Positions 51,875-55,831 of a stretch of DNA of 64,000 nt are shown piece by piece. The DNA is from Holophagaceae bacterium. Its GTDB lineage: Bacteria; Acidobacteriota; Holophagae; Holophagales; Holophagaceae. The stretch covers positions 1,682 to 65,681 of the forward strand of contig JBDIBF010000002.1 in NCBI GenBank assembly GCA_039812765.1, given 5' to 3'. Below the pieces are notes generated by a model. It was not told where the DNA came from, made no database searches, and saw nothing but the letters and a program-made list of their open reading frames with translations. The number at the start of each line of letters is the position of its first letter. The first letter of the stretch is position 1. The translations under genes and the position numbers were made by a program.

Positions 51875-51906
51875 GCGGCGGCCCCGGGGTGCCCCGGGGC
51901 CGCCGC
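51875..51906. terminator. bidirectional terminator hairpin GCGGCGGCCCCGG-GGTGCC-CCGGGGCCGCCGC
   Basis: Near-perfect 13-15-bp GC stem. GATGAAA on the plus-strand 5' side corresponds to UUUCAUC 3' of the stem on the minus strand. It sits between convergent genes. Confidence 0.8.
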
Positions 51907-52017
51907 AGGATCGCTGGGCCCGTCTCAGTTCAGCATGCAAAGACGGGGCACGCAGGTGTTGTTGGTGCCCGCGCAATTGTCTACGGTCCCGGGGAGGCTG
52001 GGCACATTGTCGCAAAG

Positions 52018-52131
52018 TCAGATGTCTCCCGTGTAAACGGGGCACCAGTTGATTTCGGCGCCAGCCACGGTGGCGGCCTGTCCGAGATTGATGGACCGCA
52101 GGGTTTCGCGGTTCAGGTCGAGCTTCTTCAC
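52018..52131 (-). CDS. leader-peptide-like small ORF (37 aa to the first TGA; the frame stays open to 51925)
   Basis: GTG 52131 lies 6 nt after AGGAG. Product VKKLDLNRETLRSINLGQAATVAGAEINWCPVYTGDI. See the finding for the in-frame extension. Confidence 0.55.
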   Translation of the reverse strand: MKKLDLNRETLRSINLGQAATVAGAEINWCPVYTGDI

Positions 52132-52398
52132 GGGGATCTCCTGGATGGGGCTGCGCGGGCCGTGGTTGGGATCCCGAACGATGGCGCGCCGGGCCTGGGC
52201 GGCACAAATGTCACGATCCCAGCCGCCCCGCGAAGGAGGCCGACCGGTGGCTGCGGCCCCTCCGATCCGCACCGCCGGACCTCGTGCCCCCGGGCGGGGT
52301 GGACAAAGGGCCGAACGGGGCCGGACAATGGATGGCCCCCGATCCCAGGCCCAGGTTGACCAACGCCTTCCCGGGTGCGGGCGCATCCGGAGGAGCCC

Positions 52399-53415
52399 AT
52401 GAAGGTGGCCAGTCCCGACGATTCCCGGACGGAGGCCCCGGCGGCAGGCGTGCCGCAGCCGGCGGGGCACCCGCGCAATCCCATCCACCCCCTGGACCTG
52501 GACCCGGTGCGGGCCCTGCGCGTCAACCTCAGCGCGGTGGAGCGCCGGGCGGCCAGCCTGCCGGGGCGGCGCACGGTGAAGAAGGAGTGGCAGGCGGCCT
52601 GGCTGCTGCGGGCCATCACGCTCATCGACCTCACCACGCTGTCCGGGGACGACACGCCGGGCAACGTGAAGCGCCTCTGCGCCAAGGCCCGCAACCCCGT
52701 GCGGCCGGACCTGCTGAAGGCCCTGGGCGCCGAGGACCTGGGCGTCACCTGCGGCGCGGTCTGCGTCTACCACGGCCTGGTGGCCACCGCCGTGAAGGCG
52801 CTGGAGGGCTCGGGCGTCCCCGTGGCCGCCGTGTCCACGGGCTTCCCCGCGGGCCTCAGCCCGATGAAGGAGCGGATCAATGAGATCAAGGCCTCGGTGG
52901 CCGACGGGGCGAAAGAGATCGACGTCGTCATCACCCGCGGCCTCGCCCTGAAGGGCGAGTGGGAGGCCCTGTATGACGAGGTGCGTGCCTTCCGGGAGGC
53001 CTGCGGCGAGGCCCACATGAAGGTCATCCTGGGCACCGGCGAGCTGGCGACCCTCACCACCGTCGCCCGGGCCAGCCTCGTGTCCCTGCAGGCCGGCGCC
53101 GACTTCATCAAGACCTCCACGGGCAAGGAGCCCGTGAACGCGACCCTGCCGGTCGGTCTGGTCATGGCCCGCATGGTGCGCGCCCACTTGGAGGCCACGG
53201 GCTTCAAGGCCGGCTTCAAGCCCGCCGGCGGCATCCGCACCGCGAAGTCCAGCCTGGACTGGATGGCCCTCATGAAGGAGGAGCTGGGCGACGCATGGCT
53301 GAGGCCCGACCTCTTCCGCTTCGGCGCCAGCGGCCTGCTCACGGACATCGAACGCCAGCTGGAGCACTTCGCCACCGGCCGGTATGCCGCCGCGTACCGC
53401 CAGCCGATGCCCTGA
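52399..53415 (+). CDS. deoC: deoxyribose-phosphate aldolase (long form)
   Basis: ATG 52399 after GGAGGAG. IDLTTLSGDDT, AVCVYHG, ADFIKTSTGK (Schiff-base Lys), KPAGGIRT. Confidence 0.85.
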   Translation: MKVASPDDSRTEAPAAGVPQPAGHPRNPIHPLDLDPVRALRVNLSAVERRAASLPGRRTVKKEWQAAWLLRAITLIDLTTLSGDDTPGNVKRLCAKARNPVRPDLLKALGAEDLGVTCGAVCVYHGLVATAVKALEGSGVPVAAVSTGFPAGLSPMKERINEIKASVADGAKEIDVVITRGLALKGEWEALYDEVRAFREACGEAHMKVILGTGELATLTTVARASLVSLQAGADFIKTSTGKEPVNATLPVGLVMARMVRAHLEATGFKAGFKPAGGIRTAKSSLDWMALMKEELGDAWLRPDLFRFGASGLLTDIERQLEHFATGRYAAAYRQPMP

Positions 53416-53455
53416 CCTTCCCTCACGACGCTCGACGAACCCGCCAGGAAGCCCC

Positions 53456-55831
53456 ATGTCCGTGAAGACCATCTTCGAAACCCTGGAATACGGCCCCGCC
53501 CCGGAAAGCGCCTCGCCGGCGCTGGACTGGATCGCGTCCCACGAGGGCAAGTTCGGGCTCTGCATCGGCGGCCAGTGGTCCGCGGCGGCGGACGGCGCCA
53601 CCTTCGAGGTGCTGGACCCGTCCGCCAACAAGGTCCTGGCCCGGGTGGCCCAGGCGGGCACCGCGGACGTGGACCGCGCCGTGGCGGCCGCGCGGAAGGC
53701 CCAGGGCCCCTGGGCCGCGCTGTCGCCCCACGCCCGGGCCCGCCACCTCTACGCCCTGGCCCGGGCCGTGCAGAAGCACTCGCGCCTGCTGGCGGTGCTG
53801 GAGTCCATGAACAACGGCAAGCCCATCCGCGAGAGCCGCGACATCGACATCCCGCTGGTGGCCCGCCACTTCTACCACCACGCCGGCTGGGCCCAGTTAT
53901 TGGAAGGGGAATTCCCCGGTTACGGGGCCGTTGGGGTGGTCGGCCAGATCATCCCCTGGAACTTCCCCCTGCTCATGCTGGCCTGGAAGATCGCGCCGGC
54001 CCTCGCCGCGGGCAACACCGTGGTCCTCAAGCCGGCGGAGTACACGCCCCTCTCGGCCCTGGCCTTCACCGAGATCGCCCACGCCGCGGGCCTGCCCGAG
54101 GGCGTGCTGAACCTCGTCACCGGCGACGGCGAGACCGGCAAGCTCATGGTCACCCATCCCGGCCTCGACAAGCTCGCCTTCACGGGCTCGACGGAAGTCG
54201 GCCGCGCCATCCGCGTGGCCACCGCCGGCAGCGGCAAGAAGCTGAGCCTCGAACTGGGCGGCAAGAGCCCCTTCATCGTCTTCGACGACGCGGACCTGGA
54301 TTCCGTCGTCGAGGGCGTCGTGGACGCCATCTGGTTCAACCAGGGCCAGGTCTGCTGCGCGGGGTCGCGGCTCCTGGTGCACGAGGGCGTCGAGGCGAAG
54401 CTGCTGGCCAAGCTGCGCGCCCGCATGGAGAAGCTGCGACTGGGTTCGCCATTGGACAAGGCCGTGGACATGGGCGCCATCGTCGCCCCGGCCCAGCTGG
54501 AGCGGATCCGTGGCCTCATGGCCGAGGGCGCGAAGGAGGGCGGCACGATCTGGCAGCCGAGCTGGGCGGCTCCCAAGGAGGGCTGCTTCTACCCGCCCAC
54601 CCTGGTCTCCGGCGTGGCGCCGGCGGCCATGCTGGCCCAGGTGGAGATCTTCGGGCCCGTGGTGGTGGCCATGACCTTCCGCACGCCGGCCGAGGCCGTG
54701 GCCCTCGCCAACAACACGCCCTACGGCCTGGCCGCCAGCGTGTGGACCGAGAACATCAACCTCGCCCTGGACATCGCGCCCAAGGTGAAGGCCGGCGTGG
54801 TGTGGGTGAATTGCACGAACCAGTTCGACGCCGCCGCGGGCTTCGGCGGCTACCGCGACTCGGGCTTCGGCCGCGAGGGGGGCCGCGAGGGCATGTGGGA
54901 GTACCTCAAGGCCAAGCCCGCGCCGGCGCCAGCCCCCTTCAAGCCCGAGCCCTTCGAGGCGGGTCTGGGCGCCGTGGACGGCGGCCTGCCGGGCATCGAC
55001 CGCACGCCGAAGCTCTTCATCGGCGGCAAGCAGGCCCGGCCCGACTCGGGCTACAGCCGCCCGGTCACCGGCGTCTCCGGCCGGGTCCTCGGCGAAGTGG
55101 GCGACGGCAACCGCAAGGACCTGCGCAACGCCGTGGAGGCCGCCCACGCCGCCGCCGGCTGGGCGAAGGCCACGGGCCACCTGCGGGCCCAGATCCTCTA
55201 CTACCTGGCGGAGAACCTCTCGGCGCGCGCCGCCGAGTTCGCGAAGCGCCTCCGCGCCATGACCGGCGCGCCGGCCTCCGTCGCCGAGGCGGAGGTGGAG
55301 GCCTCGCTGTCGCGGCTCTTCACCTACGCCGCCTGGGCGGACAAGTTCGACGGGGCCGTCCATAGCGTTCCGATGCGGGGCGTGGCCCTGGCCATGAACG
55401 AGCCGGTGGGCGTGCTGGGGCTGGCCTGCCCCGAGGCCTTCCCGCTCCTGGGCTTCGTGTCCCTGGTGGCCCCGGCCCTGGCCATGGGCAACACCGTCGT
55501 GGCGCTGCCCTCCGCGGCCCACCCCCTCTGCGCCACGGACTTCTACTCCATCCTCGAGACGTCGGACCTGCCGTCCGGCGTGCTGAACATCGTCACCGGC
55601 GACAAGGAGGCCCTCGCCAAGGTCCTCGCCGACCACGACGACGTGGACGGCCTCTGGTTCTTCGGCAGCCAGGCCGGCGCCGCGGCGGTGGAGCGGGCGA
55701 GTGCGGCGAACATGAAGCGCACCTGGACCGAGTGGACGGAACGCGACTGGATGGGCGCCGCGGGTGAGGGGAGGGCGTTCCTCCGCCACGCGACGGAGGT
55801 GAAGAACATCTGGATCCCCTACGGGGAGTGA
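53456..55831 (+). CDS. aldehyde dehydrogenase with a second, truncated ALDH-like module (about 790 aa)
   Basis: The first ~500 aa form a complete ALDH (IIPWNFPLLM, LELGGKSP, QGQVCCAGSR). After an APAPAP linker comes a second ALDH-like region lacking the catalytic Cys and ELGG motifs. Confidence 0.85.
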   Translation: MSVKTIFETLEYGPAPESASPALDWIASHEGKFGLCIGGQWSAAADGATFEVLDPSANKVLARVAQAGTADVDRAVAAARKAQGPWAALSPHARARHLYALARAVQKHSRLLAVLESMNNGKPIRESRDIDIPLVARHFYHHAGWAQLLEGEFPGYGAVGVVGQIIPWNFPLLMLAWKIAPALAAGNTVVLKPAEYTPLSALAFTEIAHAAGLPEGVLNLVTGDGETGKLMVTHPGLDKLAFTGSTEVGRAIRVATAGSGKKLSLELGGKSPFIVFDDADLDSVVEGVVDAIWFNQGQVCCAGSRLLVHEGVEAKLLAKLRARMEKLRLGSPLDKAVDMGAIVAPAQLERIRGLMAEGAKEGGTIWQPSWAAPKEGCFYPPTLVSGVAPAAMLAQVEIFGPVVVAMTFRTPAEAVALANNTPYGLAASVWTENINLALDIAPKVKAGVVWVNCTNQFDAAAGFGGYRDSGFGREGGREGMWEYLKAKPAPAPAPFKPEPFEAGLGAVDGGLPGIDRTPKLFIGGKQARPDSGYSRPVTGVSGRVLGEVGDGNRKDLRNAVEAAHAAAGWAKATGHLRAQILYYLAENLSARAAEFAKRLRAMTGAPASVAEAEVEASLSRLFTYAAWADKFDGAVHSVPMRGVALAMNEPVGVLGLACPEAFPLLGFVSLVAPALAMGNTVVALPSAAHPLCATDFYSILETSDLPSGVLNIVTGDKEALAKVLADHDDVDGLWFFGSQAGAAAVERASAANMKRTWTEWTERDWMGAAGEGRAFLRHATEVKNIWIPYGE

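Follow-up and report, generated by a model that had tools for sequence, protein, structure and literature searches.

Does the in-frame TGA of a short Holophagaceae gene encode selenocysteine (Sec), or does it simply end the protein? The gene lies on the minus strand of the window (the whole 64,000-nucleotide stretch of DNA analyzed here), and its frame stays open past the TGA into a Cys-rich tail. A sequence-only reading of the locus proposed a candidate selenopeptide or RiPP-like precursor and listed a recent nonsense mutation among the alternatives. That alternative fits best. The gene encodes a precursor-like peptide, evolves fast, is dispensable, and is restricted to one genus; we consider its TGA allele to be, probably, a recent nonsense allele.

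Architecture of the peptide gene

The start codon is a GTG (52129..52131), preceded at 6 nt by the Shine-Dalgarno sequence AGGAG read at 52139..52143, and the ORF from GTG 52131 to TGA 52018-52020 comprises 37 codons with the product VKKLDLNRETLRSINLGQAATVAGAEINWCPVYTGDI. The leader occupies residues 1-26 (MKKLDLNRETLRSINLGQAATVAGAE; 52054..52131), as delimited by hhalign and by invariant columns, and carries a double-glycine-like V-x-G-A junction at residues 22-25. The core then opens with INWCPVYTGDI (residues 27-37; 52021..52053), a segment translated even in the TGA allele, after which comes the TGA itself at codon 38 (52018..52020), with C as the next base. The 30-codon tail, LCDNVPSLPGTVDNCAGTNNTCVPRLCMLN (51928..52017), is a putative relic of a Cys-rich core that matches two uninterrupted orthologues and holds the conserved Cys 40, 53, 60, and 65 and a C-x-x-N end. 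It closes with a second TGA (51925..51927), where the gene ancestrally stopped. An intrinsic-terminator-like hairpin of 14 G-C pairs followed by TTTCATCT (51875..51906) separates the peptide gene from the convergent SnoaL-like gene, 18 nt past the second stop and 111 nt past the first; in the alignment, orthologues have a hairpin of different sequence at the equivalent place. The start, Shine-Dalgarno, stop, and terminator positions all agree with the sequence-only reading, as does its count of five Cys plus the UGA position in a read-through peptide.

Several features differ between the window and its orthologues. GGAG stands at equal spacing in the orthologous alignment, and the AGGAG of the window is nearer to consensus. 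The start codon is ATG in all three orthologues used for polarization, so that the change to GTG is specific to the window lineage. The terminal stop is likewise TAG in 3/3 orthologues (AACTAGG, as against AACTGAG in the window), a second lineage-specific stop-codon change.

Upstream of the peptide gene, a four-way alignment reveals conserved non-coding blocks, CTGGGATCGTGaCaTTTG and ATCGTTCGGgATCCCAACCaCGGCCCGC (52155..52222, minus strand), which presumably represent its promoter, operator, or 5' UTR. The two blocks, candidates for a regulator site or an element of the 5' UTR, have a GGATCGT-like repeat in common. Public gene calls P0002, P0010, and P0011 (84 aa, "hypothetical"; 52018-52272, minus strand) begin at an upstream in-frame GTG or ATG and so translate conserved intergenic DNA. 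The orthologues place the true start at 52131, which corrects these calls, and the 84-aa annotation is an artefact of the short truncated ORF.

The sequence-only reading held that coding periodicity runs through the TGA. Its count of third-position G+C was low by one in frame (24/30 rather than 23/30); the alternative frames give 16/30 in one, as it stated, and 15/30 in the other, which meets a stop at codon 12. The argument itself fails, as genuine stops look alike: in this window of 72% GC, at least 30 open codons follow 57% of 30 genuine stops, and these post-stop extensions have a median GC3 of 24/30. As evidence for coding, the open frame and the GC3 of the tail thus do not exceed chance expectation at this GC content. 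When further pairs of high-GC3 ORFs linked through an in-frame TGA were sought, only ordinary neighboring genes emerged. It is the orthologues, and only they, that mark the tail as coding, in the present or in the past.

A small, fast-evolving family at one locus

A very small family emerged from a search of 5.8 billion proteins and from HMMER run exhaustively over 1.84 billion cluster representatives. It consists of two uninterrupted proteins, one of 68 aa and 85% identical to the window peptide (P0001) and one of 65 aa and 66% identical (P0003), plus the three 84-aa calls from the TGA allele. Orthologous loci encode a 68-aa peptide with Cys at the TGA column (L001), 65-aa peptides with Leu at that column (L007 and L008), and MKKLNLTRETLKALTQDEHAAVQGAANTQKCPTILCSVAVQCPSRDCTLN, a 50-aa peptide with a different four-Cys core of ~25 residues and unrelated sequence (L089). 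The last is the locus of an NCBI protein from a "Holophagaceae bacterium" MAG in the 90%-identity DeoC cluster and is fully syntenic with the window. All orthologues occupy the gap that separates the SnoaL-like gene from deoC, synteny extends beyond 10 kb, and by these comparisons the peptide gene is a single-copy gene of a narrow Holophagaceae clade. In one relative (L090), the gap measures only ~120 nt and the peptide gene is absent, which indicates that the gene is dispensable.

The two parts of the peptide evolve differently. Leader residues 1-25/26 are invariant or nearly so among orthologues (MKKLxLxRETL ... V-x-G-A), and V22-x-G24-A25 is invariant in all four. The core varies in length and sequence, and its Cys residues and C-x-x-N end are the only core features common to all orthologues. 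DeoC identity among the window, L001, and L007 is 96-98%, as against 85% and 66% for the peptide, so the peptide gene is fast-evolving. Relative to L001, dN/dS is 0.21 before the TGA and 0.12 in the tail; such low ratios at a dS of ~0.5 imply purifying selection on the tail during most of the divergence. In the same alignment, conservation drops sharply directly past the second stop. The proposal that the Cys-rich tail is coding sequence is therefore upheld by its conservation in orthologues and its dN/dS. Nor do orthologues end at the first stop ahead of an unconserved region; they are uninterrupted at 65-68 aa with the tail conserved.

Other searches returned no further members. Peptide-pattern scans of genome and metagenome contigs gave no match, an outcome put down to the shortness of the peptide and its restriction to one lineage. 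Representative genomes scanned with DeoC as the anchor gave, among the best 80 of 571 loci, Gemmatimonadota (DeoC ≤79%) and no peptide homologue. In two further relatives (L095 and L096), the genes upstream of deoC are arranged differently; these loci are uninformative for the peptide. An AlphaFold2 model of an intact homologue had a mean pLDDT of 42 and no usable fold.

The deoC side of the locus has features of its own. A ~50-nt block in the deoC-peptide intergenic region (52295-52345, both strands) is nearly invariant and kept even in the distant L089, and a sigma-70-like TGGACA-18-GACAAT (52300-52329, plus strand) faces deoC; the block is probably the deoC promoter or operator. Directly 3' of deoC, 53384-55831 (plus strand) encodes a protein with two tandem aldehyde-dehydrogenase domains that is kept, at 791-815 aa, in all orthologous loci. 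DeoC itself (338 aa, 52399-53415, plus strand) is 68-79% identical in the best 80 of 571 matching genome stretches (L009-L088), most of them Gemmatimonadota MAGs. This unusually high cross-phylum identity suggests horizontal transfer of the deoC region.

A lanthipeptide-type leader apart from maturation genes

Aligned by hhalign with 25 PF28317 (Lant_leader_dom) proteins, the four orthologues match over residues 1-26 (98.4%, E 5.6e-15), and their V-x-G-A, ending in G-A, falls on the V-x-G-G cleavage motif, ending in G-G. Through this leader homology, the RiPP-like half of the original proposal holds, including its leader/core layout. The leader/core reading is right at the level of leader homology, which does not by itself make the gene part of a lanthipeptide system.

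The resemblance to class I lanthipeptide precursors (PF28317/NF038153) includes a KKLSLNRETLRSL-type motif, the G-G/G-A junction, and a Cys-rich core with Thr or Ser 3-5 residues before several Cys. In the intact cores, T/S-x(2-4)-C spacings occur as TCDC/TLDC, TVNNC/TAAC, and TNNTC, and in L089 as TQKC, TILC, and SRDC; these would allow thioether rings, and disulfides fit equally well. The differences are equally concrete. The peptide is under both curated cutoffs, as its 11.6-14.6 bits with NF038153 (lant_leader_L1a, the class I lanthipeptide leader) fall short of the required 22 and PF28317 is unmatched by Pfam hmmscan at E up to 10. The junction is G-A rather than G-G, and the window allele is cut before most of the core. 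No LanB, LanC, protease, or transporter gene lies within 64 kb of the peptide gene.

The genomic neighborhood is otherwise housekeeping in character: the window encodes RecG, the SnoaL-like protein, DeoC, aldehyde dehydrogenase, a PAS histidine kinase with a response regulator, and CoaD. LanB, LanC, radical SAM enzymes, C39-peptidase transporters, and immunity genes are absent from the 64 kb (40 annotated ORFs) and from the orthologous loci. The earlier remark that no maturase, protease, or exporter is adjacent thus extends across the whole window. A literature search on lanthipeptides in Holophagaceae found nothing.

A leader profile built from six peptides places the family in a wider setting. 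It includes two marginal leader-sharers (P0038 and P0039, with E 0.87 and 3.9 against the four-orthologue profile) and therefore extends beyond the family proper. At E ≤10 it recovers 118 small proteins, many with PF28317 and, where named, mostly from Acidobacteriota. Among 5.8 billion sequences, PF28317 proteins are retrieved at E 1e-4 to 1e-2, and some of the retrieved peptides bear the JGI name "natural product precursor" or the NCBI name "class I lanthipeptide".

In the loci of other same-leader peptides (L103 1928-12096; L102 1-2947; L097-L101), small precursor genes alternate with pairs of His_kinase (PF06580) and LytTR response-regulator genes, and one type in these clusters always precedes a Ser/Thr protein kinase gene. 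LanB and LanC were not called within 10 kb of these peptides. By analogy, the layout resembles peptide-pheromone cassettes more closely than antibiotic gene clusters. The window gene is similar to double-glycine-leader peptides (class II bacteriocins, pheromones) in its short non-hydrophobic leader, the conserved small-residue pair at the leader's end, and its occurrence as a lone gene, and its leader-sharing relatives directly precede His_kinase and LytTR pairs as in pheromone cassettes. It differs in that the window has neither a C39-peptidase ABC transporter nor a LytTR system. Bacteriocin models also gave nothing above cutoff; the best, CCPGW_fam, reached 16 bits against a cutoff of 80, in the L089 orthologue only.

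Age and origin of the TGA allele

A JGI contig (L002/L003), an ENA contig (L004), and four Logan runs (L091-L094) all show the TGA exactly as the window does. Assembly error is ruled out by this agreement of at least seven independent contigs, assemblies, or runs, and a reassigned genetic code by the use of TGA as the stop of 24 of the 30 window genes, in which it is never internal.

The allele is shallow. It occurs only in contigs 99.5-100% identical to the window, where it appears fixed, and its two haplotypes differ at 2/401 nt, both upstream of the ORF. It is absent from all three more distant orthologues: L001 has the Cys codon TGC in this column, L007 has the Leu codon CTC, and the L089 core is not alignable there. 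The expectation of a Cys codon opposite the TGA is consequently borne out in the first and contradicted in the second, while conservation of the tail was found as anticipated. The intact Cys allele of L001, from a sister species at 86-93% nucleotide identity, and the TGA allele of L002 coexist in one sample, JGI metagenome 3300006092.

The change is also local. In a polarized three-way comparison, window-specific non-synonymous changes cluster at codons 37-41 (52008..52022), where ACC TGC GAT TGC GCT has become ATC TGA CTT TGC GAC, with five base changes, the stop included, in 13 nt. No unambiguous non-synonymous change follows codons 41-42. The patch looks like one local multi-base event, which would also have removed Thr37, a residue conserved in the other three orthologues as aligned. 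No donor copy of the mutated patch was found in the window, on either strand, within 3 mismatches. The tail in the window lineage has acquired no frameshift and no further stop; with only ~2 changes of any kind there, this test for absence of decay is nearly powerless.

Taken together, we propose the following scenario. Relatives would encode a precursor of 50-68 aa with a lanthipeptide-type leader of ~25 residues and a fast-evolving, Thr/Ser- and Cys-rich core ending in C-x-x-N. The intact peptide may be recognized through its leader, cleaved after G-A, crosslinked or oxidized at its four Cys, and exported, by enzymes that would be encoded elsewhere. In the window species, a recent local mutation probably altered codons 37-41, with TGA taking the place of the TGC for Cys. 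Because TGA is an ordinary stop here, translation would end at codon 37, and the TGA allele would yield the leader and 12 residues of the core. Everything beyond, from the tail through the old stop to the terminator, would then be an intact leftover that has had too little time to decay. The truncated allele has presumably lost its function, and such a loss would be unsurprising for a gene that is fast-evolving and absent in L090. Three observations count against a nonsense allele: the TGA stands opposite a Cys codon in the closest orthologue, the tail is undecayed, and the allele is apparently fixed in at least seven assemblies or runs.

Partial read-through or a shortened product

UGA followed by C is the leakiest termination context in Escherichia coli, so some full-length product may still arise from the TGA allele. 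A stronger version of this idea has tRNA-Trp, or else tRNA-Cys or tRNA-Arg, read UGA-C as a near-cognate codon, often enough for a minor full-length fraction to keep the tail under selection. The context is present in the sequence, the tail has suffered no disabling change, and the allele appears fixed in the population. Against this, C is also the next base at 6 of the window's 24 genuine TGA stops, so the same context serves normal termination; there is no stimulatory structure downstream of the UGA; and recency alone predicts an intact tail equally. We regard such selected leakage as unlikely.

Similarly, the 37-aa peptide (leader plus EINWCPVYTGDI) might itself be functional, as a newly shortened core in a hypervariable family. 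Core plasticity is indeed high, as the unrelated core of L089 illustrates, and both the leader and the ribosome-binding site are intact, with a Shine-Dalgarno sequence even closer to consensus than in relatives. The truncation, however, removes all four conserved Cys and the C-x-x-N end, the very features that orthologous cores share, and the start codon has been weakened from ATG to GTG. A functional short product therefore seems distinctly improbable.

The selenocysteine reading

The remaining possibility is that SelB and tRNA-Sec recode the UGA with the help of a SECIS in the tail, to give a 68-aa precursor with Sec38 and five Cys. Its appeal lies in the classical Sec/Cys signature: as in bacterial selenoproteins with Sec/Cys homologue pairs (e.g., PMC1794560), an in-frame TGA stands opposite the TGC of the closest orthologue and is followed by an intact, conserved tail. 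The window lineage has, moreover, gained Cys30, which brings the total of Cys plus the Sec position to an even number.

The column, however, is not a conserved Cys column. It is occupied by Leu in L007, unlike Cys 40, 60, and 65, and the TGA is limited in depth to one population at least 99.5% identical. The conserved Thr37 was lost in the same mutational patch.

The RNA argues in the same direction. The sequence-only reading considered a bacterial SECIS conceivable on the basis of two pairings 3' of the UGA, GCG.CAAU with AUUGCGC and GUGCCC with GGGCAC. Both are present in the predicted folds, which are nonetheless weaker than the genomic coding background. The 40, 50, and 60 nt 3' of the UGA have minimum free energies of -6.5, -10.0, and -12.9 kcal/mol, values equalled or bettered by 92-94% of ~1090 ordinary coding windows from this genome. 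Shuffling gives a z-score of 0.44, and the RNA of the Cys orthologue is more stable than that of the TGA allele. The region thus has no SECIS-like stability, in contrast to selenoprotein genes.

Sec machinery is likewise absent from what could be surveyed. The sole tRNA of the 64-kb window is a tRNA-Gly (Rfam, ARAGORN), with no tRNA-Sec and no other Rfam match, and selA, selB, and selD are missing from its 40 annotated ORFs. At the family level, the largest published survey (PMC5029168, Supplementary Table S1) records SelD, SelA, and SelB as absent from both sequenced Holophagaceae that it scores, Geothrix fermentans DSM 14018 and Holophaga foetida DSM 6591. A literature search on Sec in Gemmatimonadota, Geothrix, or Holophaga found nothing beyond that survey table.

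Precedent for a selenopeptide does exist. PMC13188914 cites the radical-SAM thio(seleno)oxazole system (reference 90, Lewis et al. 2021), whose RiPP precursors contain Sec and are the nearest precedent for the idea. The window gene differs from that system in having no radical SAM enzyme nearby. To our knowledge, the thio(seleno)oxazole precursors are the only ribosomal natural-product precursors with genetically encoded Sec; they reportedly adjoin their radical SAM maturase and occur in Sec-using organisms.

With a Cys/Leu column, a shallow TGA, a weak RNA fold, neither sel genes nor tRNA-Sec in the window, and a negative record for Holophagaceae, the selenopeptide reading does not survive, and we judge recoding to Sec highly improbable. 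We hold the broader claim in equal doubt, namely that the UGA is decoded, either as Sec through machinery elsewhere in this uncultured genome or by efficient read-through, so that a complete precursor of the lanthipeptide type carries Sec, or some other residue, at position 38.

Implications

Were the selenopeptide real, it would be the first Sec-bearing member among peptides with a lanthipeptide-type leader, a seleno-ether or selenosulfide crosslink could form, and new chemistry would be added to ribosomal natural products; the evidence points the opposite way. The locus serves as a worked example that an open frame with high GC3 past a TGA is uninformative at 72% GC, and that one Sec/Cys alignment is insufficient without depth, a SECIS, and the decoding machinery.

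Finally, the analysis brings to light a previously unannotated, genus-restricted peptide family that combines a lanthipeptide-type leader with a hypervariable Cys-rich core and sits at a housekeeping locus away from any maturase gene. The family may be useful to genome mining of Acidobacteriota for natural products or peptide signals.
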